Positions 25,911-62,306 of a DNA stretch of 64,000 nt are shown here, one piece after another; within the stretch, counting starts at the first letter, position 1; each line of letters begins with the position of its first letter. The notes under the pieces are model-generated. The model was not told where the DNA came from. It made no database searches and saw only the letters and a list, made by a program, of their open reading frames with translations. The stretch is taken from positions 225,433 through 289,432 of the forward strand of contig NZ_JAIQDD010000010.1 in NCBI RefSeq assembly GCF_020036995.1, read 5' to 3'. Position numbers and translations under genes: made by a program. This stretch comes from Corallococcus sp. AS-1-12. Its GTDB lineage: Bacteria > Myxococcota > Myxococcia > Myxococcales > Myxococcaceae.

Positions 25911-26833
25911 AGACGCCATCCCTTGTCGCGCGGGGGAGCCTCCTGCTCGCCGCCGCGCTGTTCGCTGTTTCCGTCGCCAGCCCCGCCTCCGCCGCGCCGA
26001 AGAAGGCCACGCTGGGCGTGTTCCTCGCCACCACGCTGTCGGATGGCCAGGAGCGCTTCCAGTACGCGGAGGCGCTCGCCCAGAAGCTGGAGGCCAGCCT
26101 GGGCCGCCCCGTGGGCGCCAAGAGCTTCGGCCGCTACGAGGACTTCTCCAAGGCGGTGGGGGAGGGGCAGATCGACTTCGCCGTGGTGGACGGCTGGGCC
26201 GCGGTGCAACTGGGCGCCAGGGCGGAGGCGGTGGCGTACGCCCCGCGCGCCGGTGAGACGCAGCAGCGCTGGGCCATCATCTCCCTCCAGAAGGGCACCG
26301 TGAAGGACCTCGCCGGCAAGCGCATGGCGCTGGTCAAGGGCGCGGGCTCCTCGGACCCCAAGTTCGTCTCCCACGTGGTGCTGGGCGGCGACCTGGATGC
26401 CCAGAAGCACTTCAAGCTGGTGCCGGTGCCCAACGTGGAGTCGGCGGTGAAGATGCTGGAGGCCAAGGGCGCGGAGGCCGCGCTCGTGCCGGTGGCGCAC
26501 GTGCCCAGGGACATGCGGGTCCTCTTCAAGAGCACCCGGGTGCCGGGCGCCGTCCTGGTGGACCTGAAGGGCGGGGGAGACGCGTTGTCCCAGTCCCTGT
26601 CCTCCGTGGGTGCGGTGGCCCCGTTCGACGCCTTCACCCGCATCCAGGGCCGCGAGTTCGAGGACTTCCGCAAGCTCGTCACCCAGGGCCCCCCGCGCCG
26701 CCAGCCCGTCTTCGCGGACCCCCCCGACCTGAGGGTGGAGACCCCCGTGTTCGTCCAGTCCGAGTCGCTGGGTCCCGCGCTCCCGCCCTTCGCGGACGAC
26801 CTGGCCGTCTCCGCCGAACAGCCCGATGACTGA
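25907..26833 (+). CDS. Periplasmic substrate-binding protein, PhnD/SsuA-like fold (ABC-type SBP without adjacent permease or ATPase)
   Basis: Signal peptide; SBP-like region KRMALVKGAGSSDPKFVSHVVLGG. GTG start overlapping the TPR stop (GTGA at 25907-25910). Confidence 0.65.
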   Translation: MKTPSLVARGSLLLAAALFAVSVASPASAAPKKATLGVFLATTLSDGQERFQYAEALAQKLEASLGRPVGAKSFGRYEDFSKAVGEGQIDFAVVDGWAAVQLGARAEAVAYAPRAGETQQRWAIISLQKGTVKDLAGKRMALVKGAGSSDPKFVSHVVLGGDLDAQKHFKLVPVPNVESAVKMLEAKGAEAALVPVAHVPRDMRVLFKSTRVPGAVLVDLKGGGDALSQSLSSVGAVAPFDAFTRIQGREFEDFRKLVTQGPPRRQPVFADPPDLRVETPVFVQSESLGPALPPFADDLAVSAEQPDD

Positions 26834-27069
26834 TTGCGCCGTGAGCTGATCCGCGTGGGGCGCCCCCGCCGCCCCGCGCATGTTTCAGCGCGATCGACAG
26901 CCATGACTTGGCCTAAGGCGAGTTATTGCGGTAATTTGAGAAGTCGAGCGGAACGCCACCGTTCAGGGGTGGAAACTCGTCCCTGAGAACGATTGCCAGT
27001 CGCACCGGCTCTGGATCCTGGCGCAACGACCGCGGACATCCCTGCTTCCCCCTCGTGGAATTGAGAACG

Positions 27070-29696: not shown

Positions 29697-30539
29697 TTGG
29701 ATACCGTCGCCGCCGTGAAGGATGCTCCCCTGAAGTTGACGCCGGACACGACGCTCACGCCGGAGGCGCTGGAGAAGGCCTCCGGGGTGCTGGCCCGGGA
29801 CGGCCTGTTGTTGGGGCGCGGTGACGACGCGGCGCCGCGGCTGGTGCTGTTCGACGGGCGGTTCACCCCCGCCCACGCCGAGCTCCTGGAGCGCCGTCCC
29901 CCGGCGCTGCTGCTGGCCACCCGCGAGGGCGGCCAGCCGTCCGCCTGGGAGGCGCGGTTGCTCAGCGCGCTCCTGCGCGGCGAGCCCATGATCCCCCAGG
30001 AGGCCGCCACGTCCGTGGCGTGGCTGGGCAGCGTGGCGGAGGTGACGGCCGTGGGCGAGCGCGCGGCCGAGGCCGTCCTCCAGGCCGGCGGCTCCAAGGG
30101 CGCGGCCAGCCGCGTGGCGGATGTCGTCCATGAGATTGGTGTGAACGCCCTGCTCGACGCGCCAGTGGACGGAAGCGGCGAGCCGAAGTACGCCCACCGG
30201 CGTGGCCAGGTGCAGTCGGTGGCGGAAGAGGATCGCTGCCTGGTGTCCTGGGCGGTGGCGGACGGCCGGGCCTGGCTGGAGGCGACGGATCGCTTCGGCC
30301 GCCTGTCGGTGTCACCGCTGGTGCGGGTGGTGAAGGCGTGGGGTGAGAAGGCGCAGGTGGATGCTTCGGGTGGTGGCGCGGGCCTGGGCCTGCGGCGCAT
30401 CCTGGAGCACAGCGACGCAGTGGCGGTGCGGGTGAGTCCGGGAAAGCGCACGCAGTTCGCCTGCGGGGTGGATCTGGGAGACGCTCGCCGCCGGGCCGCG
30501 CAGCCCAAGTCGCTGCTGTTCTGTCTGGAACGAGGGTAG
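29697..30539 (+). CDS. Hypothetical protein. Its C-terminal region has weak GHKL-ATPase-like G-box features (GGGAGLGLRRIL), so it is possibly an RsbW-like serine kinase/anti-sigma-type protein.
   Basis: Eight nt after the TBDT stop and 4 nt before the STPK start. TTG/GTG start. The domain call rests on motif resemblance only. Confidence 0.5.
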   Translation: MDTVAAVKDAPLKLTPDTTLTPEALEKASGVLARDGLLLGRGDDAAPRLVLFDGRFTPAHAELLERRPPALLLATREGGQPSAWEARLLSALLRGEPMIPQEAATSVAWLGSVAEVTAVGERAAEAVLQAGGSKGAASRVADVVHEIGVNALLDAPVDGSGEPKYAHRRGQVQSVAEEDRCLVSWAVADGRAWLEATDRFGRLSVSPLVRVVKAWGEKAQVDASGGGAGLGLRRILEHSDAVAVRVSPGKRTQFACGVDLGDARRRAAQPKSLLFCLERG

Positions 30540-30543
30540 GCGG

Positions 30544-33500
30544 GTGGAGAGCCAAACTTCCAATGCCAGCATCACCTCCCTGCGCGTGGGCAGTCTGACC
30601 CACGTGCGCGTGGCCGGGGTGATCGACGAAACCTTCCCCCTCTCCCCAGCCTCCAAGGGCCTCCAGGGCCTGGTGGTGGTGGACCTGGGCCTGGTCGAGC
30701 GCATCAGCTCCTTCGGCGTGCGCCGGTGGATTGAGTTCGCCGGCCACCCGCCGCAGGGCGTGTCGGGGCTGTACGTCGTCAACGCGCCGCCGGTGGTGGT
30801 GGATCAGCTCAACATGGTGGAGGGCTTCGCGGGCGTCGCGCGCGTGCTCTCGCTGCTGGCGCCGTACTCGTGCCGCTTCTGCAAGGAGGACCGGCTGCGG
30901 CTGGTGCGCCTGGTGGAGGAGGCGAAGGTGCTGGAGCAGGGCGGGGCCCCGCCGCACCAGTGCCCCGTGTGCGCCCAGCCGCTGGAGTTCGCGGACGAGC
31001 CCACGGAGTTCTTCGACTTCGCGCGCCGCCAGCAGTTCTCCGCGGTGGACCCGGCGGTGCTGCGCTACCTGCGCTCCGGCATCCCCTCGGAGCCGTCCGA
31101 GCTCTCGTCGCACCTGAAGATCATCCAGGACGACATCACCTTCATCACCCTGGCCAGCACGCTCAAGGGCGACCTGAACGTGCGCCGGCTGGCGTCCGGC
31201 CTGGAGGGGCGCGTCGCGTTCGACTGCTGCCACGTGAGCGTGGTGGAGCCGGAGGCGCTGCCGCGCATCGAGCAGGTGCTGGAGGTGGCGTCGCAGGGCG
31301 CCCAGGTGGTGCTCTGCCGCGTGCCGCCGCCGCTGTTGGCCGTGCTGGCGAAGTCCACCAAGACGCTGCCCGCGAAGCTGGCCACGCTGTGGCTGCCGTG
31401 CGACTGCCGCAACTGCGGCCAGGTCACCCACCAGCGCATCCAGACCTCCGAGTACCTGGAGGTGCTGCGCTCCAAGGGCACCATGGAGCGCGTGTGCCCC
31501 GTCTGCGGCGGCAGCGCCCGGGCTCCGGCGCTCTCGCAGTTCCAGGGGCTGCTCGCGCGCACGCCGCTCACCGACAAGCCGCTGGACGACATCGAGGCGC
31601 TGGAGCAGCGCGCCCTCAGCCAGTACCTCTTCGGCTCCACCAACCAGGACCCCGGCGCCAAGGGCACGTCCGCCACGGACACGCACAACAGCGGCGCGCG
31701 GCTGCAGATCATCCGCCGGCTGGGGCAGGGCGGCATGGCGGAGGTCTTCCTCGCCAAGCAGCAGGGCGTGAAGGGCTTCGAGAAGTTCGTCGTGATGAAG
31801 AAGATTCTCGCGCAGTTCGCGGAGAATCCTGAGTTCGTCGACATGCTCTTCGCGGAGGCCCGCGCCAACGCGCGCCTCACGCACCCCAACGTCGTGCAGA
31901 CCTTCGACGTGGGCGTGACGGACGGCGTGGCGTACATCCTGATGGAGTACGTGCGCGGCCCGGACCTGAAGCGCCTGCTCACGGAGCTGCGCCGCAAGGG
32001 CATGGCGCTGCCGCTGGAGCACGCGCTGCGCATCGTGGCGGAGGTGGCCGCGGGCCTGCACTACGCGCACAGCTACGTGGACCCGTCCGGCACGGCGCAC
32101 CCGGTGGTGCACCGCGACGTCAGCCCCCACAACGTGTTGGTGTCGCTGGACGGCGCCATCAAGCTGTCGGACTTCGGCATCGCCAAGGTGCAGGGCGAGG
32201 AGCACACGCAGGCGGGCGTCATCAAGGGGAAGATCTCCTACCTCTCCCCGGAGGCCGCCAGCGGCCGCCCGCTGGACTGGCGCAACGACGTGTTCGCGCT
32301 GGGCGTGGTGCTCTTCGAGCTGCTCACCGGCCAGTTGCCGTTCCGCCGGGACCATGACGCGGCCACGCTCGCGGCCATCGTGCGCGAGCCCGCGCCGGTG
32401 CCCTCGCAGTTGCGGCCCCACATCCCGCAGGACGTGTCGGACCTGATCCTCCGCGCGCTGGTGAAGGACCCGGCGCGGCGCACGCCCTCCGCGGCGGCGA
32501 TGCGCGAGGAGATCGAAGCCGTCATCGCGCACCACCGGCTGTCCTCGTCGCCCGCGTCGGTGGCGCAGTTCTTCAAGGAGGCGCTGGGTGACCGGCTCTC
32601 CGAGTACGCGCCGTCGTCCATCGCCGGCTCGGGGACGGGCTCCAACCCCCGGGCTCTGATGCCGGGCACGGGCTCGCACTCGCGCAACCTGGGCACGGGC
32701 TCCGGCAGCGACATGCGGGCCCCGTCGGACCTGTCCCGGCCGCCCGTGCGCGGCGGCTCCGGCAGCATGCCCCGCATGGAGCCGCCCCCGGTGGCCTCCC
32801 CGCCGGAGCCCGCCGAGCGCGGGACCGAGGTCGTCTCCGTCTCCTCGCCGCCCGTGGCCTCGCCTCCGGTGGCCCCGCCCGTGGCCGCCGCGCCCCGTCC
32901 GTCGCGCCCGGCCGCGGCTCCGCCCACGTCGCCGCTGCCGCCGCCCTCCGCGGTGCGCCCCGCCGCGTCCGCCAACGTGCCCACGCGCGTGGGCCCCCCG
33001 CCGCAGGCGCCCGCGCGCCCGTCGGTGTCGGTGCCCTCCGTCGCCCCCATGACCGCGGCCCCGCCGCCGCCCCCTGTGTCCGCCATGCCGCCCCCGCCGC
33101 CGCATGGGGGCACCCACGCGCAATACGGGGTCGCCCACGTGCAGCAGGGAGGCGCGCCGCCGCCGCAGGCAGGTGCCTACGCACCCCAGGGAGGCGCTTC
33201 GCAGTCGCAGGCAGGTGCCTACGCCCCACAGGGAGGCGCTTCGCAGCCGCAGGCAGGTGCCTACGCGCAGCAGGGAGGCGCTTCGCAGCCGCAGGCAGGT
33301 GCCCACGCGCCGCAAGGGGGCTCTCCGCGGACGTCAGGCACCCACGCGCCGCCGACGACGGGCACCCACGCCGCCTATGGGGGGAGCCATCCCTCGTCCG
33401 TGGCCGCGCCGCCGCCGCCTGTCTCGGCGCCCATGGCCCCGCCCGCGCGGGCGCCAGCGGCCCACGTGGCCCCGCCGCCGGCTCCCGTCCACGCGGTCTC

Positions 33501-34041
33501 CCCCACGGCTCAAGCGCCCGCCGCCGAAGCGACGGCGAAGGGGCTGACGCCCGGCCAGCGCAAGGGGCTCATCGTGGGCGGCGTGGCCCTGGTGCTCGCG
33601 GGGCTCGCGCTGGTGTTCCTGCTGCCCAAGGGCGGCGTGGAGGTGCGCAACGCCCAGGAGGGTGAGCGCGTCTACGTGTCCGGTGTCCTGCTGGACGCGA
33701 ACCAGGGCCTGCCCGAGGGCAACGCCGGCTGGCTCATCTCCACGGCCGTGGACGGCAAGCTGCACCGCTTCGGCAAGGTGCCGAGGTCGGAGCACATCGA
33801 CCTGCGCACGCTCGCGGACGCCCCGCCCCAGGCGGAGGCCCGGGGCACGCTCAGCGTCACCGGCGCCCAGGGCTGCCGCGTCGCGCTGGGCTCGCAGGTG
33901 CTGGAGGGCCAGACGCCCCTGTCCAGCCAGATGCCCGCGGGCCGCGAGTTCGAGGTGCGCGTCACCTGTGGCGGCAAGCCGGACCTCGTCCGCTGGGTGA
34001 TGGCCGTCCCGGGACAGGGCGTCGCGCTGGACGTGCCCTGA
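30544..34041 (+). CDS. Hanks-type Ser/Thr protein kinase. Domain order is two N-terminal STAS-like domains each followed by a CxxC...CxxC zinc-ribbon, a kinase domain, a ~330-aa Pro/Ala/Gln-rich disordered region with tandem repeats, a TM helix and a C-terminal extracytoplasmic domain.
   Basis: Kinase subdomains GQGGMAEVFLAK, VMKK, HRDVSPHNVL, DFGIAK and SPE. Duplicated STAS-like and Zn-ribbon units at aa 1-190 and 190-340. Single TM GLIVGGVALVLAGLALVFLL near the C-terminus. Confidence 0.85.
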   Translation: MESQTSNASITSLRVGSLTHVRVAGVIDETFPLSPASKGLQGLVVVDLGLVERISSFGVRRWIEFAGHPPQGVSGLYVVNAPPVVVDQLNMVEGFAGVARVLSLLAPYSCRFCKEDRLRLVRLVEEAKVLEQGGAPPHQCPVCAQPLEFADEPTEFFDFARRQQFSAVDPAVLRYLRSGIPSEPSELSSHLKIIQDDITFITLASTLKGDLNVRRLASGLEGRVAFDCCHVSVVEPEALPRIEQVLEVASQGAQVVLCRVPPPLLAVLAKSTKTLPAKLATLWLPCDCRNCGQVTHQRIQTSEYLEVLRSKGTMERVCPVCGGSARAPALSQFQGLLARTPLTDKPLDDIEALEQRALSQYLFGSTNQDPGAKGTSATDTHNSGARLQIIRRLGQGGMAEVFLAKQQGVKGFEKFVVMKKILAQFAENPEFVDMLFAEARANARLTHPNVVQTFDVGVTDGVAYILMEYVRGPDLKRLLTELRRKGMALPLEHALRIVAEVAAGLHYAHSYVDPSGTAHPVVHRDVSPHNVLVSLDGAIKLSDFGIAKVQGEEHTQAGVIKGKISYLSPEAASGRPLDWRNDVFALGVVLFELLTGQLPFRRDHDAATLAAIVREPAPVPSQLRPHIPQDVSDLILRALVKDPARRTPSAAAMREEIEAVIAHHRLSSSPASVAQFFKEALGDRLSEYAPSSIAGSGTGSNPRALMPGTGSHSRNLGTGSGSDMRAPSDLSRPPVRGGSGSMPRMEPPPVASPPEPAERGTEVVSVSSPPVASPPVAPPVAAAPRPSRPAAAPPTSPLPPPSAVRPAASANVPTRVGPPPQAPARPSVSVPSVAPMTAAPPPPPVSAMPPPPPHGGTHAQYGVAHVQQGGAPPPQAGAYAPQGGASQSQAGAYAPQGGASQPQAGAYAQQGGASQPQAGAHAPQGGSPRTSGTHAPPTTGTHAAYGGSHPSSVAAPPPPVSAPMAPPARAPAAHVAPPPAPVHAVSPTAQAPAAEATAKGLTPGQRKGLIVGGVALVLAGLALVFLLPKGGVEVRNAQEGERVYVSGVLLDANQGLPEGNAGWLISTAVDGKLHRFGKVPRSEHIDLRTLADAPPQAEARGTLSVTGAQGCRVALGSQVLEGQTPLSSQMPAGREFEVRVTCGGKPDLVRWVMAVPGQGVALDVP
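33165..33320 (+). repeat. In-frame 48-bp tandem repeat (~3.3 copies) inside the STPK low-complexity region, encoding (Q)AGAYAPQGGASQ(S/P)Q
   Basis: gcaggcaggtgcctacgc(a/c)cc(c/a)cagggaggcgcttcgcag(t/c)cg repeated head-to-tail. Confidence 0.8.
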
Positions 34042-53089: not shown

Positions 53090-53528
53090 GCCAGCCCTCG
53101 TTCGTCCGCCAGGGACCCCGATGGATTGGCACTGCCCGTGCGCTTGGAACCTGCCCGCCTGTCCCCTTGCCAGGCCCGCGTTGCCTTTCGTGCATCCACC
53201 CCCAGGCACACATCGGGAGCGCTGCAAGAAAGCCAACGGCCGGCGGGCCGGGCGTCTGGCGCCTGGGGTGCTACATACCCAGAGGCGCCTGCCTGCTGTC
53301 AGGACGTGCGTGACGCAAAGGCCGCCGGGATTGTCCTGGATGGCGGAGCCCTCGCCGTGTCCTCGACTTCGCGCCAGAGGGGATGAGCGTCTGCCTTTGG
53401 GTCTCGCCGGAGCGGGGCAGGCTGTAGACAGATGATACATGAGGGAAACCGATGTGAAGCATTGGGTCCTCTTGCGGTCGGCGGGCCTGTAGCTTTACCG
53501 TGCGCCTGCTGCCCTCCCCCGGACATCC

Positions 53529-54458
53529 ATGGCCACTCCGAGTCTCCCGTCGTCGAGTGTCGCAGTCGAAGAAGCCAGGCCCTCGCTGGCCCGCGTCTGG
53601 TGGGTCGCGCTGCGGCCCAAGACGCTCACGGCCTCCATCGCGCCCACGCTGGTGGGGTGGGCCTTCGCCAACGTGGAGGGGGGCTGGCGGCCGGTGCCGG
53701 CGCTGACCTTCCTGGTGGGCTTCATGCTGGCGCAGATCGTCAGCAACCTGGTGAACGACTACTCGGACTTCGAGCGCGGCGCGGACACGGCGGCCCGTCT
53801 GGGGCCCGCGCGCGTCACGCAGAAGGGCTGGCTGTCCTCACGTGAGGTGGCGGGCGCCGCGGCCCTGGCCTTCACCGGCGCCGCGCTGGCGCTGCTGCTC
53901 CTGACGCAGGCGGGCGGCTGGCCCGTGCTCGCGGGCGGCGCGGTCTGCCTGGCGGGCGCGGTCCTCTATTCCGCGGGCCCCGTGCCGCTGGGCTACATGG
54001 GCCTGGGGGACCTGCTGGTGCTGCTCATCTCCGGCCTCCTGGGCGTCACCGGCAGCTACGGGGTGCTCACCCATCACCTCTCCGGCGACGTGGTGCTCGC
54101 GGGCCTGTCCATGGGGCTCATCGCCGCGGGCATCCTCGCGGTGAACAACCTGCGCGACCGCGAGACGGACGTCCTCGCCGGCAAGCGCACGCTGGTGGTG
54201 CGCTTCGGCCGCCGCTTCGGCCAGTGGGAGTACACGCTCGCGGTGGCGGGGGCGTTCGCGCTGCCGCTCATCGCCTGGGCGCTGTCGCCGGAGCATCCGC
54301 GCGCGTGGCTCTTCACGCTGGCGGGCCTGCCGCTCGCGGCGGTGCAGATCCGCGCCATCTGGAAGGAGGACGGCGGCGCGCTCAACCCGCACCTGGGGCG
54401 CACCGCGGGGCTGGGGCTGGTGTTCGCCGTGCTCCTGTCCGCCGGTCTCAGCCTCTGA
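53529..54458 (+). CDS. menA: 1,4-dihydroxy-2-naphthoate polyprenyltransferase (UbiA superfamily), menaquinone biosynthesis
   Basis: First Asp-rich motif NLVNDYSDFERGAD plus 8-9 TM helices, a MenA-like layout. Confidence 0.8.
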   Translation: MATPSLPSSSVAVEEARPSLARVWWVALRPKTLTASIAPTLVGWAFANVEGGWRPVPALTFLVGFMLAQIVSNLVNDYSDFERGADTAARLGPARVTQKGWLSSREVAGAAALAFTGAALALLLLTQAGGWPVLAGGAVCLAGAVLYSAGPVPLGYMGLGDLLVLLISGLLGVTGSYGVLTHHLSGDVVLAGLSMGLIAAGILAVNNLRDRETDVLAGKRTLVVRFGRRFGQWEYTLAVAGAFALPLIAWALSPEHPRAWLFTLAGLPLAAVQIRAIWKEDGGALNPHLGRTAGLGLVFAVLLSAGLSL

Positions 54459-54528
54459 CTCGGCTAGACTCGCAAGCCCCCGCCCGTCCCCCGTTGCATC
54501 CCCCGTCGTCGTTCGCTCCGGAGTCCCC

Positions 54529-54984
54529 GTGTTCTTCGCGCCGAAGGTCTTCCCCGCCTGGGGTTCGCTCAGCCATGCCGCCCGGTCCCTCTACGGTTGG
54601 ACCTTCTACACGGTGCCGCTGGCGCTCCTGACGCTCTTGAGCCCCGCCACCTTCCTCACCGTGGCGGGCATGCAGCCGGACCCCGCGGATCCGCACCACT
54701 TCGCGGTCCGCATGTTCGGGTCGCTCCTCACGTCGCTGTCCTTCATGTCCCACCAGGCCGCGGTGCGGGAGGTCCGCCCGTTCTTCCACTGGGCCGTCAT
54801 CGGCCGGACCTTCATCACCGGCGTGGTGCTCCTGTGCACGGCGCTGGGGCAGTGCCCGCCCATCATGGCCTTCTTCGCCTGCATCGACTTCGGGGGCGGC
54901 ATGTGGACCTTCGTGGGCCTCAAGCGCGACGCCGCCGAGGCCGCCCGCGGCGCCCAGCCCGCCCTGGCCCATCCGACGCCCTGA
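54529..54984 (+). CDS. Small membrane protein, hypothetical (151 aa, 4 TM)
   Basis: Hydrophobic ORF between menA and the cytochrome genes. Non-ATG start. Confidence 0.45.
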   Translation: MFFAPKVFPAWGSLSHAARSLYGWTFYTVPLALLTLLSPATFLTVAGMQPDPADPHHFAVRMFGSLLTSLSFMSHQAAVREVRPFFHWAVIGRTFITGVVLLCTALGQCPPIMAFFACIDFGGGMWTFVGLKRDAAEAARGAQPALAHPTP

Positions 54985-55002
54985 GTCACCCGCGCGATCT
55001 GA

Positions 55003-55023
55003 AGTCCGCGAATTGCGCGGACT
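55003..55023 (+). terminator. Hairpin AGTCCGCG-aattg-CGCGGACT 18 nt after the stop of the 54529..54984 ORF, a weak intrinsic-terminator candidate with a poor U-tract
   Basis: 8-bp perfect stem and 5-nt loop seen in sequence, followed by ctcataatgtggtcagtttg. Confidence 0.25.
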
Positions 55024-55197
55024 CTCATAATGTGGTCAGTTTGAACCGATGAGGTGTTCTCCTCCCAACCCTTTCCTGGCTTCACCATCTCCGCGTAGCG
55101 GAGCGCTGGCGGCGTCGGGAAGGGTGGGGCGCGCGGGCCCGCGCGTGAGGATACCTGCTCCCTTTCCTCCCCCCGACTGCCTCCGGCCTCGTCTTCC

Positions 55198-57108
55198 ATG
55201 AACCGCTCAATCCTGCTGAAGAGCGCGTGGTGCGCCCTGCTGGTGCCCCTGCTGTCCTGCAACCTCCTCAAGGTCACTGACGACGAGGGGTCCACGACGG
55301 GCCGCGGTGCCAAGCGGTTCGACCCCTACCAGGGCCTCAACTCCGGCGCGATCCGGCTGAGCCTCCAGTACATCAACGGCTGCGCCTTCCTGCCCAACGG
55401 GCAGATGGTGGCGAAGAACAGCGTGACCCCGGGGTATCCGGACACGTGCATCACGCCGCTCGCGCAGGACCCGCTGACGCTGTCGCCTCCCACCGGGACG
55501 CTGCAGATCCTGTCGGACACGCAGTACTTCCTGAACCAGTTCTCCGTGTCGGAGACCGTGGTCAACCAGCACAACAACCCCAACGACCAGACCGCCGCGC
55601 TGGCGTGGATCAAGAACCAGTCCGTGTTCTCCGGCCTGGACTGGACCAACGTCAACCAGGGCCCGGACGAGTGGAGCTTCTACAGCCTCGCGGGCGCGGT
55701 GGAGGACTGCTGGACCCGCGAGGTGCAGTTCGGCAACGCGAACTGGCAGAAGGTGAAGGACGACACCATCACCGTGGAGGTGCTGGACGAGACGGGCACC
55801 CCGCGCGCGAGCCAGACGTACCTGCGCTCGGAGCTGCTGGCCTCCTCGCCCTACGCCGGCCACAGCCGCTTCTCCTGGCGCTCGGAGAACCTGAAGCCGC
55901 CGCGCTTCCCTGGCGACAAGGACCCCGGCACCGTGACGGGCTTCGCGGGCGGCCTGGACCAGAGCGCCATCACGCGCACCATCGCGCGCGTGGACTGGGT
56001 GGGCAGCACCAACCCCTTCAAGGTGCTGCGCGTGCCGCGCCTGTCGGGCCCCGGCGCGCTCCGGGCCACCTGGAGCCAGTTGCCGGACAAGCCGTTCTAC
56101 TTCCCCGTCACGTACATCATCCCGGATGACCGCCCGTCCACCTGCACGGACGACGCCGGCAACCCGGTGCAGTGCAGCCCGGGCCTGGACTCGCGGCTGG
56201 TGTTCTCGCCCCCGAAGGAGGGCAGCTTCTACAAGCCCGGCGAGGACGTGAGCGTCTACGTGGACCTGCGCGACAGCGCGGGCGCGCACCTGCACTCGCG
56301 CGACCTGCTGCCCAGCGCGCGGGAGATCATCGGCGGCCAGTCCAACGGCATCCAGACCTTCGTCCCCAACGTCATCGCGACCGTCACGGAGAACGACTCC
56401 ATCTCCAACGTGGCCATCGCCGGTCCCATCCAGGACCTGAAGGTGCTGGGCAACCCCAGCGACAAGCCCGAGTTCTTCGCGCGGCCGTTCCCGTTCGCCA
56501 TGCTGGATGACGCCACGCTCACGGGGCTGACGCCGGGCCTCATCGACTACAAGTGGCCCACCCGCCAGACGTTCACGCTGCCCGCGAACGCGAAGCCGGG
56601 CACCTACGTGGCGCTGGTGAAGTTCAACCGCGCGGCCCTGGGCGAGCGCGTCGCCAAGCTGAACCCCTTCTTCTTCCAGGTGGGCCAGGACGAGCCCACG
56701 ACGTACCCGGGCAACGTGGGCAACTGCCAGATCTGCCACCGCGGCGTGCTGTCGCTGGACAACCTGCGCCACGGCCTGTCGGTGGACCACATCGAGAGCT
56801 GCAAGGTCTGCCACCACTACGACACGGACACGGTGGGCCGCACGCAGGAGATGGTGCACCGCATCCACATGAACTCGCCCAGCTACCCGGCGAACCGCGC
56901 GGACTGCACCGTGTGCCACCTGACGCGCAAGAGCACGGAGCGGCCCAGCCTGGCGCTGTGCGGCTCGTGCCACATCTCCCAGCACGGGGACGAGTTCTTC
57001 CAGATCGCCTTCAACCAGCGCGGCACGCCCAGCCGGTTCGGCAACTGCGCGCAGACCTGCCACGGCGGCGAGCAGCTCCCCGCCCGACACATCCTCCCCG
57101 CGAAGTAG
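55198..57108 (+). CDS. Multiheme c-type cytochrome lipoprotein (5 heme-binding motifs clustered in the C-terminal 140 aa; large N-terminal non-heme domain)
   Basis: Lipobox PLLSC. Heme motifs CQICH, CKVCH, CTVCH, CGSCH and a CX3CH (CAQTCH). Confidence 0.8.
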   Translation: MNRSILLKSAWCALLVPLLSCNLLKVTDDEGSTTGRGAKRFDPYQGLNSGAIRLSLQYINGCAFLPNGQMVAKNSVTPGYPDTCITPLAQDPLTLSPPTGTLQILSDTQYFLNQFSVSETVVNQHNNPNDQTAALAWIKNQSVFSGLDWTNVNQGPDEWSFYSLAGAVEDCWTREVQFGNANWQKVKDDTITVEVLDETGTPRASQTYLRSELLASSPYAGHSRFSWRSENLKPPRFPGDKDPGTVTGFAGGLDQSAITRTIARVDWVGSTNPFKVLRVPRLSGPGALRATWSQLPDKPFYFPVTYIIPDDRPSTCTDDAGNPVQCSPGLDSRLVFSPPKEGSFYKPGEDVSVYVDLRDSAGAHLHSRDLLPSAREIIGGQSNGIQTFVPNVIATVTENDSISNVAIAGPIQDLKVLGNPSDKPEFFARPFPFAMLDDATLTGLTPGLIDYKWPTRQTFTLPANAKPGTYVALVKFNRAALGERVAKLNPFFFQVGQDEPTTYPGNVGNCQICHRGVLSLDNLRHGLSVDHIESCKVCHHYDTDTVGRTQEMVHRIHMNSPSYPANRADCTVCHLTRKSTERPSLALCGSCHISQHGDEFFQIAFNQRGTPSRFGNCAQTCHGGEQLPARHILPAK

Positions 57109-57123
57109 GGGAAGCACCCCGCC

Positions 57124-58245
57124 ATGCAAAGAGCTCTCTTCGTCGGAACGCTCCTCGGCGCGGCCCTGCTGAACGCGGGCTGCCAGGACTCCACCAACCC
57201 CGCGGCGTCCACCTTCACGCCGCGCCCCACGTATGAGAACCGCGAGCCGGAGGGCCTCACCTCCCGCGTGACGGGCTTCACCGTGGATCCGGAGGCCTAC
57301 TTCCTCAACCTGGCCAACTGCGCGCCGCCGCCCGCGCAGTGCGCGCTGCCGCCGCTGTACGCGGAGTTCAGCCCGCTCCTGCAGCGCGCGGTGGTGCGCA
57401 ACGCGCCCATCACCCTGCAGGACACGCAGCCGGACCCCGCCACGGGCCAGCCGCCCGCGCCGGGCGCGCCCACGGTGTCGGACGCCAACGGCATCTGGAC
57501 CCTGGACAAGGTGCCCACCCGCCGGGGCGCGCCGTTCCTCGTGCTGTCGCTGGGAGGGCAGGCCACGCTGGCCAACAACGCCACGTTGCCGCTGCCGCCT
57601 CCGCTGCCGACGCTGCCTCCCGTGCCGGAGGGCAACTATGTCCCCACGCTGACGGTGCGGCCGGTGGTGCCCGCGCACAGCGCCTGCGTGGGCCTGGAGG
57701 CCCTGCAGATGAGCGACAAGGGCATCCTGGAGGCGGTCGCGAAGTCCCTGACCGCCGAGGGCACGCCCACCACGGTGGCGGACCTGCTCAACCCGGCCCG
57801 CTTCGGCGGCGTGACGGTGTTCTGGATGTACCGGCCGGGCTTCCCCGTGTTCCGCGTGCCGGCGGCGAACACCACCGTGACGGCCACCTCCGGCCGCGTG
57901 CTGAACGTCGAGTGGGCGCCCCCGGGCGCGCTGCCGCCGGCGCTGGCGCCGTTCCAGTCCACGCGCGGCTTCTTCATCCCGCCGGGGCCGCCGGCGCCCG
58001 ACAGCTCCCTGGGCATCGTCGCCGTCGTCCACCCGCCGCTGATGGGGCCGCCGCCCGTGGTCCACTACGAGGCGAAGGACGTCACCACGAGCGACCCGGA
58101 AGGACGCCCCTGGTCGCTGATGCAGCCGGTGGACCTCCCCGTCATCCCGGGGGTCGTGACGTTCGCCGGCCTCCAGTTGGTCAGCAAGACGCCGTCCTCG
58201 ACGCCCCAGATTCCCCCGCCCAGCACCTGCCTGCCGGGCCAGTAG
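57124..58245 (+). CDS. Pro-rich lipoprotein, hypothetical (373 aa)
   Basis: Lipobox LLNAGC. Sixteen nt after the pentaheme gene and codirectional with it. Confidence 0.6.
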   Translation: MQRALFVGTLLGAALLNAGCQDSTNPAASTFTPRPTYENREPEGLTSRVTGFTVDPEAYFLNLANCAPPPAQCALPPLYAEFSPLLQRAVVRNAPITLQDTQPDPATGQPPAPGAPTVSDANGIWTLDKVPTRRGAPFLVLSLGGQATLANNATLPLPPPLPTLPPVPEGNYVPTLTVRPVVPAHSACVGLEALQMSDKGILEAVAKSLTAEGTPTTVADLLNPARFGGVTVFWMYRPGFPVFRVPAANTTVTATSGRVLNVEWAPPGALPPALAPFQSTRGFFIPPGPPAPDSSLGIVAVVHPPLMGPPPVVHYEAKDVTTSDPEGRPWSLMQPVDLPVIPGVVTFAGLQLVSKTPSSTPQIPPPSTCLPGQ

Positions 58246-58344
58246 CCGCCTCACCCGTCCCAACGCCGGCGCTCCCTCCACGCCTCCCCGTGGTGCGGAC
58301 GGAGCGCCGTGTGCCGTCCCCGTTCATCCGGAGAAGCGTTCCCC

Positions 58345-59598
58345 ATGATGAAGAAGATCCTGATCGCCATTGGTGCGTTGGTCGCCCTGGTCCTGATTGG
58401 CGCGGGCACCGCCATGGGCGTGGCCAGCCACAAGATCAACAAGTCGTATGACTACGTCGCGCTGCCCAACATCACGCGAGACAGCTCTCCGGAGGGCATT
58501 GCCCGCGGTGAGCAGGTGTTCCGCGCGGTGTGCGCGGAGTGTCACGCGGGCGGTGGCAACACCAAGCCCACGGGCGTGCAGATGCACGACTTCCCGCCGG
58601 AGCTGGGCACGTTCTACTCGGCGAACATCACCTCCGACCCGGAGAAGGGCGTGGGGGCCTGGACGGACCAGGAGATCGCCCGCATGGTGATCAACTCCAT
58701 CGACAAGAACCACCACGTGCGCCCCATGCCCGCGTTCCCCAACATGGGCGACAAGGACCTGGCGGCGGTCATCGGGTTCATGCGCTCGGGGCACCCGGAC
58801 TTCGCGCCGGAGAAGACCCAGCCGCCGCGCTCCACGCTGACCCCCATGGGCCGGATGGTGTTCTCCTTCGCCATGGGCATCAACGACAAGGGCCGCACGG
58901 AGGAGGTGCCCGTGCCCGCGAAGGCGGCGGACTCCGTGGAGTACGGCCGCTACGTGTCCGCCAGCGTCTACGACTGCGTCTTCTGCCACTCGCCGGGCTT
59001 CGAGGGCAGCGCGGCGAAGATGAAGAACCCGGACACCGTGCTGAGCGGCGGCTTCGAGTTCGACCTGACGCCGCTGGGCGGCGAGGGCAAGCTGCTGTCG
59101 CCCAACATCACCGTCAGCGAGACGGCCGGCATCGGCAAGTGGACGCTGGACGAGTTCAAGCACGCCATGCGCACGGGCGTGACGCCCGCGGGCCACATCC
59201 TGCGCGCGCCCATGCCCAAGTACCGCTACGCGGACGACGTGGAGCTCACGGCCATCTACACCTTCCTGCGCTCCATGAAGCCCAACGACACCGTGGTGCC
59301 GCCTCCCGCCGGTGGCCGCCCCAAGGCGGAGCCCTCCAACGACCCGGAGAAGATGTTCAGCTCCCTGGGCTGCGCGACCTGCCACGCCCCCGGCAAGCCC
59401 TACGAGGCCAAGCTCCAGGGCGCCAAGGGCAAGGCCCCGGAGGAAGTGGCCAAGTGGATCCGCAACCCGGAGTCCTTCAAGCCCGGCACGCAGATGCCCA
59501 CCTACGAGTCGCTCGTCGACGAGACCAACGCCCTGGCGCTGGCGAAGTACGTCCTGGGCAGGACGGGCGGCACCGTGAGTGAAGGCACCACGCCCTGA
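58345..59598 (+). CDS. Membrane-anchored triheme cytochrome c (three class-I cytochrome c domains; resembles cytochrome subunits of membrane-bound dehydrogenases)
   Basis: N-terminal TM KKILIAIGALVALVLIGAG. Motifs CAECH, CVFCH and CATCH, each followed by a Met-containing distal region (PMPAF, MPKY, QMPTY). ATG at 58345. Confidence 0.85.
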   Translation: MMKKILIAIGALVALVLIGAGTAMGVASHKINKSYDYVALPNITRDSSPEGIARGEQVFRAVCAECHAGGGNTKPTGVQMHDFPPELGTFYSANITSDPEKGVGAWTDQEIARMVINSIDKNHHVRPMPAFPNMGDKDLAAVIGFMRSGHPDFAPEKTQPPRSTLTPMGRMVFSFAMGINDKGRTEEVPVPAKAADSVEYGRYVSASVYDCVFCHSPGFEGSAAKMKNPDTVLSGGFEFDLTPLGGEGKLLSPNITVSETAGIGKWTLDEFKHAMRTGVTPAGHILRAPMPKYRYADDVELTAIYTFLRSMKPNDTVVPPPAGGRPKAEPSNDPEKMFSSLGCATCHAPGKPYEAKLQGAKGKAPEEVAKWIRNPESFKPGTQMPTYESLVDETNALALAKYVLGRTGGTVSEGTTP

Positions 59599-59756
59599 GC
59601 TTGACGGCGGTGTGACAAAGGCCCCCGCGTGAGTGTCAACACGCGGGGGGCCCGTGAAACATCACGTTTCTTCCGGGGGGGCGGGAGTCACAGGAAGTAC
59701 AGGTTGGTATAAGCTTTCATGTGAAGTCGTTCCCCCACCCCGTGGAGCGTCATTCC

Positions 59757-60719
59757 ATGAATGTTTCATCCGCCTCCCCCTCGGCACACCGGACGCAGTC
59801 CCCCCAGCCGCTTCACCTCCACGAGACGAAGCACCCGGACGCGCAGGGCCCCATCCGGTTGGATGACGTGCTCTGGAACCCGGTCAACGCGGAGGAGGCG
59901 CTGGAAGGGCTGGAGAAGATCCTCGCCCGGCTGAACGCGCGGAATGACTCACGCGCCATCTTCCTGGACATCTACGCCATCGTCACGCGCAAGGTCGTCC
60001 ACCTGCTGAGCCGGGAGGACGCGGGCGGCTTCCTCGAACCCGAGTGGCTGTCGCATTTGACGGGCCGCTTCGCGGAGGAGGCGCTCATCGCGGTGCGGGA
60101 CTCGCTGAGGAACCTGCCGCTGCCCACCGCGGCGTGGCGCTTCGCGACGCACTACCCGGCGCAGGGCCTGACGCAGCCGTACCAGGACGCGCTCCTGGGC
60201 GTGAGCGCGCACATCAACCACGACCTGGGAATGGTCGTCTACGACAACATCGCCCACCAGTCGCCGCCGGTGGACGCGCGCCGCCTGGCTCGCTACCGGC
60301 ATGACTACTTCCACGTGAACGAGATCCTCCGCTCGTGCATCCCGGAGTGCCTGGACCTGCTCGCGGAGCGCTACCGGTGCGCGTCCACGCGGCTGCTGCT
60401 GCGCGTGCCCTTCAGCCGCCCCGTGGTGGAGCGGGCGGTGATGCAGATGCTCATCGTGTGGCGGCAGCGCGTCTGGGACAACGTCGTCGCGATGCTGGAG
60501 GCGCAGACGCCCGAGGAGCACCAGGCCGTCGTGGAGCGCGTGCGCACCACGTCCGGCCGCATCGCGCAGGCGCTGTGCGCGGACAAGGCGCTCTGGTGGA
60601 CGGTGCGCGGCGAGTCTCCGCCGTTCAGCCTGGACCTGCCGCCGGAGGCGTGGCCCGGCGTGGTGCCGCCTCCGGAGCCCGGGCCGGACGCGGACGCGAG
60701 CGCTGCCCGCGCCGGCTAG
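59757..60719 (+). CDS. Hypothetical protein (~320 aa), His-rich helical protein of unknown function
   Basis: ORF track 59721..60719 (GTG). The in-frame ATG at 59757 (MNVSSASP) is preferred. No domain recognised. Confidence 0.5.
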   Translation: MNVSSASPSAHRTQSPQPLHLHETKHPDAQGPIRLDDVLWNPVNAEEALEGLEKILARLNARNDSRAIFLDIYAIVTRKVVHLLSREDAGGFLEPEWLSHLTGRFAEEALIAVRDSLRNLPLPTAAWRFATHYPAQGLTQPYQDALLGVSAHINHDLGMVVYDNIAHQSPPVDARRLARYRHDYFHVNEILRSCIPECLDLLAERYRCASTRLLLRVPFSRPVVERAVMQMLIVWRQRVWDNVVAMLEAQTPEEHQAVVERVRTTSGRIAQALCADKALWWTVRGESPPFSLDLPPEAWPGVVPPPEPGPDADASAARAG

Positions 60720-60730
60720 CAGGGCCGCCT

Positions 60731-62128
60731 TCAGGAGGGCGTGACTCCGGCCACGAGGTAGAAGCGCACCTGGCCGGAGTTGACGGCGTAGGCGACGTCC
60801 ACGCCCAGCAGGGGCAGCACGACGTTGTTGAGGTACAGCCGCAGGCCCGCGCCCACGCCCTGGGCCACGGTGACGGGGTTCTGGCCCGTGAGGGTCTCCC
60901 GCAGGTAGTCGCGGATGACGCGCCCGTTGGCGTCGCGGAGGACTCCATCCTCGGGGACGTCCCACCACGCGATGGCGCCCGTGTCGGAGAAGGCCACGCC
61001 CCGGAAGGCCAGCGACTGCACCTTGAAGAGGGGGAAGTGGTACTCGGCCGTGAAGGTGAGGCGGGTGTCGCCGCGGAACTGCCGGTACTGGAAGCCGCGC
61101 AGCGTGGTGCCGCCCATCACCAGCTCCTGGTGGAAGGGCAGGTCCCGGCCCAGGGCCAGCTCGCCGCGCAGCACCAGGTTGTGCTCCGTGAAGAAGCGGA
61201 TGCCGTGGCGGTAGAGCAGGCCGAACTTGCGGTAGTCGAACTCGCTCCACACGCCCGGGGTGGAGACCTCGTAGGAGGCCTCCAGGTTGAGCCCCTCCGT
61301 CACCGCGTGCAGCGTCTGGCGCGAGTCCAGGCCCACCATGAGGCGCAGCGACGTGTCCCGCATGGCGGGGCCGGTGGAGAAGGGCGGCACCGTCACCGGC
61401 ATCTTGGGGTCCGGCGCCTTCGCGTCGATGCTGGCCAGGCGGTACTTCGCCGCCGCGCGCACGCGCTCGAAGAGGATGAAGCCCAGCTCGGAGCTGAGGG
61501 ACGCGGAGTTGAAGCGCGTGCGCCGCAGGATCTCCGGGTCGTCCTCGCTGGCGTCCATGCTGTACTCGTCCACGCGGTCGCTCTTGAGCTGCCCCTCCAG
61601 GCTGAACTTGAGCTGCGGCAGCCCGAAGAGGATGGGGTCCAGGAAGCCCACGTACAGGCCGCTCTCGCCGGTGCTCACCTGCGCCGCGACGGCGAACTTC
61701 TTCGCGCGGCCGCCCAGGTTGTTCTCCGCGTAGAGCAGCCCGCCGCCGGTGTTCGCGGAGGACAGGGCCACCGTGGGCGCCACCACCCACGACGCCTTGT
61801 CCTTCACGCGCAGCACCAGCCGCACGCGCCCGTCGGGCATCGGCTCCGTGCTCACGCGGGCGTCCTGGAAGAGGCCCGTGGCCAGCAGGCGCCGCTTCAC
61901 CTTCTCCAGCTCCTCGTCGTCCACCTCGTCGCCCACGTCCACCTTGCCGAACGAGCGCACCGTCGAGGACCGCGTCTTGTTCGCGCCCTCCACCGTCACG
62001 TCCCCGACCTCCGAGCGTTGGGAGGTGGACACGGGCGTGTCCTCGTCGGCGTGGGCCACGGCGGCCCCCAGGCCCGTCAGGGCCAGGGCGAGGACGGACA
62101 GGTGACGGCGCAGGCAGGAGAGACGCAC
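60731..62128 (-). CDS. Omp85-superfamily outer-membrane protein (BamA/TamA-like: POTRA plus 16-strand bacterial-surface-antigen barrel)
   Basis: C-terminal barrel ending ...VRFYLVAGVTPS (aromatic/hydrophobic terminus). Signal peptide VRLSCLRRHLSVLALALTGLGAAVAHA from the GTG at 62128. The upstream part of the ORF track is an unsupported extension. Confidence 0.7.
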   Translation of the reverse strand: MRLSCLRRHLSVLALALTGLGAAVAHADEDTPVSTSQRSEVGDVTVEGANKTRSSTVRSFGKVDVGDEVDDEELEKVKRRLLATGLFQDARVSTEPMPDGRVRLVLRVKDKASWVVAPTVALSSANTGGGLLYAENNLGGRAKKFAVAAQVSTGESGLYVGFLDPILFGLPQLKFSLEGQLKSDRVDEYSMDASEDDPEILRRTRFNSASLSSELGFILFERVRAAAKYRLASIDAKAPDPKMPVTVPPFSTGPAMRDTSLRLMVGLDSRQTLHAVTEGLNLEASYEVSTPGVWSEFDYRKFGLLYRHGIRFFTEHNLVLRGELALGRDLPFHQELVMGGTTLRGFQYRQFRGDTRLTFTAEYHFPLFKVQSLAFRGVAFSDTGAIAWWDVPEDGVLRDANGRVIRDYLRETLTGQNPVTVAQGVGAGLRLYLNNVVLPLLGVDVAYAVNSGQVRFYLVAGVTPS

Positions 62129-62306
62129 GCACCGCTCATACTCCACGGGCCTCGGGCCCTGGTTGTTCCGGCGTGCGGCGAACGGCGCGTGCGCGCGATG
62201 CTCAACGTTCCGCGCCCGGCTCAACCTGGCGGCGGCTTGCCGTGCGCCCTGGAGAACAATCGCCTTCGGACGGGCGTCCCGGCGCCAGACGTATTATGTT
62301 CATCAT

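Follow-up and report, generated by a model that had tools for sequence, protein, structure and literature searches.

Three consecutive forward-strand genes in a 64,000-nt stretch of DNA from Corallococcus sp. AS-1-12 (contig NZ_JAIQDD010000010.1, positions 225,433 to 289,432; the whole stretch is hereafter called the window) encode a lipoprotein with five c-type haem sites, a proline-rich lipoprotein and a membrane-anchored trihaem cytochrome c, referred to as open reading frames (ORFs) 1, 2 and 3. A probability of about one half is given here to the reading that this trio constitutes a chain for envelope electron transfer with a link to the menaquinone pool. Catalysis is less favoured than electron transfer because the haems of ORF1 are carried on a non-enzymatic stalk, ORF2 is non-redox and ORF3 belongs to a family of electron-transferring cytochromes. 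The trio newly combines known kinds of haem wire and cytochrome with two families without known relatives, the ORF1 stalk and ORF2. The initial annotation of this DNA had described the same three products, likening the transmembrane-anchored cytochrome to subunits of quinone-linked dehydrogenases and noting no adjacent catalytic dehydrogenase or oxidase subunit; these descriptions are borne out, and an electron-transfer conduit, which it also proposed, remains the best reading.

ORF1, a pentahaem lipoprotein

The N-terminus of ORF1, MNRSILLKSAWCALLVPLLSC, comprises a signal peptide and the lipobox LLSC. In an alignment of 42 homologues, sharing 39-86% identity with ORF1, the lipobox residue Cys21 is invariant, and a lipid anchor at this position is predicted. 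Four CxxCH motifs (CQICH510, CKVCH535, CTVCH570 and CGSCH588) and one CxxxCH motif (CAQTCH617) all fall within the last 127 residues; just 2 of 20000 residue shuffles of ORF1 yielded two or more haem motifs. Every haem Cys and His is invariant across the 42 sequences, as are five additional histidines (H525, H554, H557, H596 and H631), candidate distal ligands which are therefore sufficient in number to give each of the five haems a bis-His pair. The cysteines C62, C84, C316 and C326, which belong to no haem site, are likewise invariant; they suggest that the protein has two disulfides and is extracytoplasmic.

The AlphaFold2 model of ORF1 (predicted local distance difference test score, pLDDT, 79.7; predicted template modelling score 0.81; residues 50-500 mostly above 90) consists of a flexible tether, three beta-sandwich domains and the C-terminal haem module, with the boundaries given in Table 1. 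The MG2 domain is matched by 4 of the 42 family members. Only beta-sandwich domains, and no enzyme-like fold, were found in the N-terminal part by fold prediction and PDB-based fold searches, and Foldseek against the PDB returned generic tandem Ig-like arrays alone (template modelling score ~0.12). A phmmer match of residues 81-157 to dispase autolysis-inducing protein (E=0.04) was dismissed as noise.

Profile comparisons suggest that the haem module is distantly related to the pentahaem domains of MtrC, OmcA and MtrF (domains II/IV in MtrC and MtrF). The corresponding Pfam family, PF22113, is matched by 28 of the 42 family members at E<1e-3 (best 3e-8), and the ORF1 family profile reaches MtrC (6r2q_C, E=1e-3; 6qyc) and MtrF (3pmq) with E values of 1e-3 to 3e-3 and with the haem motifs in register.

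These features bear directly on the proposal that ORF1 is itself a catalytic multihaem enzyme, for example a reductase or peroxidase acting through its unusual CxxxCH haem, with ORF2 as a subunit or maturation factor and ORF3 as the donor. This is considered very improbable. The five invariant histidines suffice as distal ligands, so that no open coordination site is indicated; neither CxxCK nor another catalytic haem signature is seen in ORF1, no enzyme-like fold was found in ORF1 or ORF2, and the NCBIfam models for nitrite-, tetrathionate- and Hmc-type cytochromes score far under their cut-offs.

ORF2, a proline-rich partner lipoprotein

ORF2 contains 16.6% proline and an invariant lipobox cysteine, Cys20. 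A motif scan of the protein found no haem motif, and a search with its predicted fold found no catalytic fold. Its model, built on a shallow alignment of 21 sequences, consists of transthyretin-like/CnaB-type beta-sandwich domains. A profile search retrieved just 27 proteins, all known or near-identical, candidates having probably been swamped by proline-rich words. In M. xanthus lipoprotein sorting, Lys at position +2 acts as an inner-membrane retention signal; with Asn (ORF1) and Gln (ORF2) at that position, the sequences suggest release of both proteins to the outer membrane.

The conserved cysteines of ORF2 outside the lipobox are odd in number (C66, C188 and C369). The last of these lies five residues from the C-terminus (..STCLPGQ; ~58228-58230) and is invariant in 21/21 homologues despite a variable tail.

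ORF3, a membrane-anchored trihaem cytochrome c

By homology, ORF3 is a trihaem class-I cytochrome c related to the cytochrome subunits of quinone-linked dehydrogenases. Its CxxCH motifs, CAECH, CVFCH and CATCH, lie at C63, C211 and C343 of the 417-aa form, each trailed by a conserved M-P or P-M ligand motif, and the motifs of haems 1 and 2 are invariant among orthologues. There is a single strong hydrophobic segment at the N-terminus (Kyte-Doolittle 19-residue mean 2.56). Pfam recognises Cytochrome_CBB3 and Cytochrom_C, and no NapC/NirT-family match was obtained with Pfam or NCBIfam. Residues 51-418 align with the beta subunit of flavin adenine dinucleotide (FAD)-dependent glucose dehydrogenase (8hdd_B, E=1.4e-20), with further matches to fructose dehydrogenase (7w2j_C, 6.9e-18) and alcohol dehydrogenase subunit II (8gy2_B, 5.4e-16); ORF3 stops ~60-70 residues short of the C-terminus of these solved cytochromes. 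The trihaem subunits of all three enzymes pass electrons to membrane quinone. No pyrroloquinoline quinone (PQQ) or flavoprotein dehydrogenase domains were found among the scanned neighbours of ORF3, from position ~40 kb to the window end, or beside its orthologues in loci L003, L013, L014 and L053, and a Pfam scan of the trio's neighbours found no dehydrogenase or oxidase subunit adjacent to it.

ORF3 most likely starts at ATG 58345 rather than at the listed GTG 58309 (429 aa), because a GGAGAAG motif lies 8 nt upstream of the former and orthologues begin with M(L/M)KKIL at the same point. With this start, the gap between ORF2 and ORF3 is 99 nt and that between ORF1 and ORF2 is 15 nt, close to the values of ~100 and 16 nt given in the initial annotation, the second of which was one nucleotide too large.

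Distribution of the ORF1-ORF2 pair and its gene neighbourhoods

Scanning one genome per species recovered 63 loci, distributed over Corallococcus, Myxococcus, Pyxidicoccus, Archangium, Hyalangium, Vitiosangium and Citreicoccus as well as metagenome-assembled genomes (MAGs). Outside the window's genome too, synteny of the first two genes is retained: in 64 of the 67 related loci the two are co-oriented with ORF2 downstream, the extrapolated gap having a median of 17 nt. What is conserved is thus the pair, with ORF2 as the obligate genomic partner of ORF1, and the pairing points to selection. The initial annotation had taken the three genes as the unit, which has to be narrowed to ORF1-ORF2, since the cytochrome is not constant. 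In 36 of the 67 loci a membrane-tethered member of the ORF3 cytochrome c superfamily is encoded no more than 6 kb from the pair, being a transmembrane-anchored trihaem protein in one clade and a dihaem lipoprotein in another, with none nearby in the others. The view of such a gene set as unusual for an aerobic myxobacterium, also put forward in the initial annotation, does not stand either, given the 63 loci across Myxococcus-type genera and the 34 c-type cytochromes reported for M. xanthus (PMC2330069); the ORF1-ORF2 module is common in its clade, not anomalous.

Four classes of locus can be told apart. Class A, in Corallococcus, has the order SLT(-) / menA / ORF1 / ORF2 / trihaem / DUF5995 / Omp85(-), and the trio adjoins menA in all 11 of its loci. 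Class B, in Hyalangium and Archangium-type MAGs, reads menF / trihaem / ORF1 / ORF2 / SnoaL(-) / menD menH menA menC, so that in Hyalangium versicolor and one MAG the trio is set between menF and menD-menH-menA-menC; variants in other MAGs read menA(-) / trihaem-type / ORF1 / ORF2 / menF and SnoaL(-) / trihaem / ORF1 / ORF2 / menF. Class C, found in Myxococcus, Pyxidicoccus and Archangium and as a second copy in C. terminator (in a strain different from that of its class-A locus), has a non-ribosomal peptide synthetase (NRPS) gene on the opposite strand, then genes for a 60-aa acidic peptide, a Rieske/VanA_C oxygenase, a dihaem cytochrome c, ORF1 and ORF2, followed by a TldD/PmbA pair. Its dihaem cytochrome is the counterpart of the first two domains of ORF3 and is itself a lipoprotein (LCAC-K, LSAC-Q/R). 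Class D comprises ORF1-ORF2 with other neighbours. The tie to menA is stronger than the initial annotation could know, because it recurs with other men genes in several arrangements.

The variability of the cytochrome partner opens a different explanation, in which there is no dedicated chain: ORF3 would be an ordinary membrane-anchored respiratory cytochrome c (e.g., a donor to a cbb3 or aa3 oxidase), ORF1-ORF2 would serve separately, for instance as a periplasmic electron buffer, redox sensor or structural element of the envelope, and their adjacency to ORF3 and menA would be inherited gene order. A cytochrome partner is not nearby in ~30 of the 67 loci and changes in type from clade to clade, men linkage is limited to one clade, and the 99-nt gap before ORF3 could hold a promoter of its own, all of which fit this explanation. 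We nevertheless hold it to be improbable, since two deeply separated clades both have a cytochrome of this superfamily beside the pair, yet differ in gene order and in membrane anchor, which inheritance alone is unlikely to account for, and the trihaem clade has kept its linkage to men genes through several rearrangements.

More distant relatives extend the family further. An exhaustive profile search gave 235 representatives at E<=1e-3, of which ~17 were full-length or nearly so, and many of the relatives (~500-670 aa) share only the macroglobulin-like domain and the pentahaem module (profile positions 324-636). One named wider relative, from Pendulispora, is also of the Myxococcota. The exact pattern of four CxxCH and one CxxxCH is retained in two distant ORF1 relatives (loci L068 and L069).

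By record title the loci all belong to Myxococcota, apart from two records labelled Comamonas or Proteobacteria, in which the gene order is myxobacterial. The record labelled 'Comamonas sp. KCTC 72670' (L035, BNCN01000002.1, 71% G+C) carries a Myxococcus-type class-C locus, and 'Comamonas sp. JC664' (P0078) likewise carries one; both are probably mislabelled or contaminated myxobacterial assemblies. The class-C layout itself, with its peptide, Rieske oxygenase, NRPS and TldD/PmbA genes, resembles a peptide natural-product cluster. It recurs in ~20 loci, and its 60-aa acidic peptide (L001, 5719-5901) includes ...LDEIEEIDFLLEEIESKIAPLALA.

A TonB-dependent receptor with a haem motif

Besides ORF1 and ORF3, no haem-rich or multihaem ORF is present in the window. 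The sole further CxxCH in a window ORF of high third-codon G+C is the single motif, within STVGNCGRCHYT, of a TonB-dependent receptor (TBDR)-like protein with Plug and barrel regions, encoded 25 kb upstream of ORF1. Among solved structures, its nearest relatives are Cir, a receptor for catecholate iron, and two haem receptors, PhuR and ShuA.

A Plug and barrel receptor directly adjoins ORF1-ORF2 in six class-D loci, with the motif VGNCGRCH(Y/F/A)TP in 6/6 and with a cytochrome c peroxidase (CCP)/MauG dihaem peroxidase also adjacent in 3 of the six. Similarly, the coding sequence of the distant ORF1 relative in L069 overlaps that of the next gene, which encodes a TBDR with two CxxCH motifs, and the relative in L068 has as neighbours a multihaem cytochrome of 1287 aa, a paralogue and the beginning of a Plug domain. 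These neighbours make the description of the trio as self-contained, given in the initial annotation, doubtful. In locus L017 the order is receptor, small gene, Ser/Thr kinase, ORF1, ORF2 and then a SLOG/membrane/1430-aa regulator/radical-SAM block. A comparable block of the window (Table 1) directly adjoins ORF1-ORF2 in L016-L018, L022, L023, L059 and L066, and lies a few kb off in L063. Since the block adjoins the pair in these loci, a rearrangement in Corallococcus appears to have moved ORF1-ORF2 ~13 kb away from it. On the strength of adjacency in other genomes, the receptor is a possible outer-membrane partner of ORF1-ORF2.

A metagenome scan with generic Plug-domain patterns covered 80 loci, of which 70 encode ordinary TonB receptors without the haem motif. 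In the other 10, close relatives of the window receptor, the motif is present in 10/10, and they are usually flanked by a PhnD-like binding protein and a kinase, with ORF1 within 7 kb in 0/10.

It has to be weighed, then, whether the system serves reductive iron or haem acquisition. In this specialised version of outward flow, ORF1-ORF2 would dock on the haem-bearing receptor and, with electrons from ORF3, reduce the imported ferric chelate or handle haem, either at the outer membrane or in the periplasm. The six genomes with an adjoining VGNCGRCH receptor, the receptor neighbours of the distant relatives, the receptor-kinase block followed by the SLOG/regulator block that the window shares with L017, and the kinship to Cir, PhuR and ShuA are in its favour. 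This remains doubtful, as receptor adjacency is limited to 6 of the 63 genome loci, the close metagenomic receptors have no ORF1 near them, 25 kb separate the two in the window, and no Fur-box-like sequence was recognised in the leader of ORF1 by eye (no formal scan).

A bolder proposal, also to be regarded as doubtful, is a 'cytochrome-TBDR' module in which a menaquinone-linked inner-membrane cytochrome would pass electrons to a half-size MtrC-like lipoprotein held by ORF2, which would couple in turn to a TBDR barrel with covalent haem. If true, it would be a hitherto unrecognised route for electrons to or across the outer membrane of aerobic Myxococcota, in place of the MtrAB or porin-cytochrome solution. 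Under the microoxic conditions of swarms and fruiting bodies it might be used to take up metals reductively or to respire extracellularly.

Proposed electron flow

For the envelope chain favoured here, we infer the localisations of the proteins, an ORF1-ORF2 complex, reactivity with quinone, the direction of flow and its substrate as follows. ORF3 would be held in the inner membrane by its one N-terminal helix, with three His/Met c-haems facing the periplasm; its exchange of electrons would be with menaquinol/menaquinone or else a respiratory complex linked to quinone. ORF1 would probably be anchored in the outer membrane by its ~25-residue tether and carry, on the stalk of three Ig-like beta-sandwich domains, five bis-His haems forming an MtrC/OmcA-type wire. 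ORF2, as a non-redox beta-sandwich lipoprotein, probably binds ORF1 and positions or docks it. Electrons would then run outwards from menaquinol to ORF3, to ORF1 and to an acceptor at or beyond the outer membrane, which might be a chelate of ferric iron or another metal, or an outer-membrane barrel bearing haem. This direction is modestly preferred over the inward one because of the kinship with MtrC and of the CCP/MauG peroxidase and importer-type receptor neighbours in other lineages.

In the inward alternative, ORF1-ORF2 would gather electrons from an extracellular or periplasmic reductant (such as Fe(II), reduced humics, or reduced quinones or phenazines) and ORF3 would hand them on for aerobic respiration, either to menaquinone or to a terminal oxidase, the two lipoproteins replacing the catalytic dehydrogenase subunits usual for such trihaem cytochromes. 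To our knowledge, all characterised relatives of ORF3 take electrons from a periplasmic partner and give them to membrane quinone; the step from the presumably low-potential bis-His haems of ORF1 to the presumably higher-potential His/Met haems of ORF3 would be downhill, the organism is aerobic and no dehydrogenase gene is adjacent. The characterised MtrC-family proteins, on the other hand, are terminal reductases, and the peroxidase (CCP) and the TonB receptor of importer type that adjoin the pair in related loci fit an outward supply. No sequence feature fixes the direction, and inward uptake, a serious rival, is rated unlikely on balance.

Several points weigh against the chain proposed here. 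Flow from ORF3 to ORF1 would be energetically awkward, because the potential of His/Met c-haems usually exceeds that of bis-His haems. The MtrC kinship of the window's own ORF1 is weak (23.8 bits against PF22113, under the gathering score of 30; phmmer E=0.023), and the AlphaFold2 models are without haems, the haem domain of ORF1 having a pLDDT of only 55-70. One ancestral insertion, passed on without selection to maintain it, could account for the linkage to men genes, and the sister clade of Myxococcus and others adjoins a Rieske oxygenase and NRPS instead of men genes. The dihaem partners are without the third haem domain, so that quinone reactivity may not be the conserved role. Furthermore, no trans-outer-membrane component is encoded beside the trio in the window, and members of the ORF1 and ORF2 families are named in databases only as 'hypothetical protein' or 'lipoprotein'. 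No published study of these proteins was found in the literature on myxobacterial multihaem lipoproteins, myxobacterial extracellular electron transfer, the Corallococcus locus tags and haem-motif TonB receptors.

Comparison with known systems

The closest known counterparts of ORF1 are the MtrC/OmcA/MtrF/UndA proteins of Shewanella (PF22113, TIGR03507), which are likewise lipoproteins with compact pentahaem modules, in ORF1 of predicted bis-His type, preceded by beta-sandwich domain(s); similarity is detectable in sequence and fold, and both are presumed to act as electron wires at the outer envelope. They differ in having two such modules (10-11 haems) in a I-II-III-IV architecture, with split-barrel domains I and III, while ORF1 has a single module of 5 haems behind three N-terminal Ig/MG-like domains, and it scores 19 bits with TIGR03507 (OmcA/MtrC family; cut-off 209.3). 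The Mtr system relies on the partners MtrA and MtrB, no genes for which accompany ORF1 (the 64-kb window has no multihaem ORF besides ORF1 and ORF3), and lacks a counterpart of the non-haem ORF2. Moreover, the hosts of ORF1 are aerobic Myxococcota, unlike the Shewanella hosts of Mtr.

ORF3 shares with the trihaem subunits of quinone-linked dehydrogenases the three class-I haem domains, full-length homology and the NIT(S/P)D..GIG.W motif. Unlike them, it has an N-terminal transmembrane anchor, lacks the C-terminal part of 60-70 residues, has no PQQ or FAD subunit gene nearby and is partnered by a multihaem lipoprotein; the host quinone, we take it, is menaquinone and not ubiquinone. Cyc2-type cytochrome-porins and porin-cytochrome complexes are analogous to the haem-motif receptor in combining an outer-membrane barrel with a c-haem site. 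Cyc2 carries an N-terminal haem on a smaller porin, whereas the receptor is composed of Plug and TBDR barrel with the motif inside the barrel region. With CymA, NapC and NrfH the likeness of ORF3 is one of functional analogy only, limited to the N-terminal anchor and the presumed role, these being inner-membrane c-cytochromes that convey electrons from menaquinol to periplasmic multihaem proteins; they are tetrahaem proteins without homology to the three class-I His/Met domains of ORF3. CymA has menaquinone-7 as a cofactor (PMC3340143).

Gene calls and other features of the locus

The third-codon G+C of ORF1, ORF2 and ORF3 is 0.95-0.97, which identifies them as the real frames; an antisense ORF of 1024 aa at 55207-58281 is an artefact of high G+C. 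A Corallococcus protein annotated 'hypothetical' and the translation of locus L041 (C. coralloides KYC2213) both match ORF1 at 100% identity. With its short gaps, a conserved leader on the 5' side and a hairpin on the 3' side, the layout of the trio is operon-like.

By Pfam, the neighbours of the trio are menA, a DUF5995 protein, an Omp85/POTRA protein on the opposite strand and SLT. The initial annotation had placed menA immediately upstream; the gene lies upstream but is not directly adjacent, being separated from ORF1 in this strain by a 151-aa hydrophobic membrane ORF and a 213-nt intergenic stretch. It is regarded as a conserved upstream neighbour giving the trio its context, with no co-transcription implied. 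The 151-aa ORF has high third-codon G+C and turned up elsewhere only in the same-species locus L041, other Corallococcus having ~60 nt between menA and the leader and hence no room for it. It has no Pfam or NCBIfam match and no BLASTP similarity to the small membrane proteins adjoining ORF1-ORF2 elsewhere, and, being limited to the window and L041, is not counted in the system.

About 200 nt of the intergenic stretch are conserved across Corallococcus, forming a leader that occurs once each in 11/11 class-A loci and, by an nhmmer profile, is missing from the other classes. RNAalifold gives a long hairpin with five pairs showing compensatory change, and no credible Rfam family was found. Identity over the whole leader, 81-94%, is similar to the 76-89% at synonymous sites, so that only the near-invariant core, which includes a palindrome and a -10-like element, is clearly constrained. 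The leader may represent a promoter/operator together with a structured 5' untranslated region; a sigma-70 consensus scan of 53300-60000 found no promoter.

Downstream, a G+C-rich hairpin is a possible transcript end for the trio, although its stability is not significantly above that of shuffles (z=-1.35). The DUF5995 and Omp85/POTRA genes lie beyond the trio in most Corallococcus class-A loci and in no other class, and no evidence was found tying either to the trio's system.

Table 1. Positions of the genes, domains and other elements discussed in the text (window coordinates unless a locus or residues are named).
Feature	Position	Strand	Remarks
PhnD-like binding protein	25862-26833		flanks receptor
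TBDR-like barrel with c-haem motif	27055-29688	+	Plug and TBDR barrel
Ser/Thr kinase	30436-34041		flanks receptor
Block comparable to that of L017	34620-42435		SLOG-family, small membrane protein, 1440-aa regulator-like, fatty-acid desaturase, radical-SAM
menA (1,4-dihydroxy-2-naphthoate polyprenyltransferase)	53529-54458	+	TIGR00751, 170 bits (cut-off 102)
Hydrophobic membrane ORF	54529-54984	+	151 aa; between menA and leader
ORF1 upstream leader	54998-55197	+	Corallococcus class A
Near-invariant leader core	55004-55066		~60 nt
Palindrome GTCCGCGAATTGCGCGGAC	55004-55022		in leader core
-10-like CATAAT	55026-55031		in leader core
ORF1, lipoprotein with five haem sites	55198-57108	+	636 aa
ORF1 disordered/flexible tether	residues 22-44		~25 residues; AlphaFold2
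ORF1 beta-sandwich domain 1	residues ~45-215		predicted fold
ORF1 beta-sandwich domain 2	residues ~224-307		predicted fold
ORF1 beta-sandwich domain 3, macroglobulin MG2-like	residues ~331-495		predicted fold
ORF1 C-terminal pentahaem module, probably MtrC-type	residues 505-636
ORF2, proline-rich lipoprotein	57124-58245	+	373 aa
ORF3, trihaem class-I cytochrome c	likely 58345-59598	+	417 aa
G+C-rich hairpin	59620-59652	+	22 nt past ORF3 stop; 12-bp stem
DUF5995 protein	59721-60719	+	3' of trio
Omp85/POTRA outer-membrane protein	60731-62224	-	beyond trio
Haem-motif receptor	L017 3060-5687
Haem-motif receptor	L044 8283-10481
Haem-motif receptor	L047 7880-9985
Haem-motif receptor	L050 207-2459
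Haem-motif receptor	L055 1-1308
Haem-motif receptor	L057 7935-9971
Haem-motif receptor	L069 9817-12006		two CxxCH

Implications

What is known of electron transfer in the envelope and outside the cell comes largely from anaerobes that respire metals, among them Shewanella and Geobacter. Most Myxococcus-type bacteria, which are aerobic and predatory and include the genetically tractable M. xanthus, keep an uncharacterised module of the kind described here, and both its placement among men genes and its adjacency to haem-motif TonB receptors yield hypotheses that can be tested by knockouts. Should the trio prove a genuine conduit, more kinds of organism and more parts would be known to wire the respiratory chain to the cell surface, with a possible bearing on iron acquisition, on survival in the oxygen-poor interior of swarms and on the redox chemistry between predator and prey.

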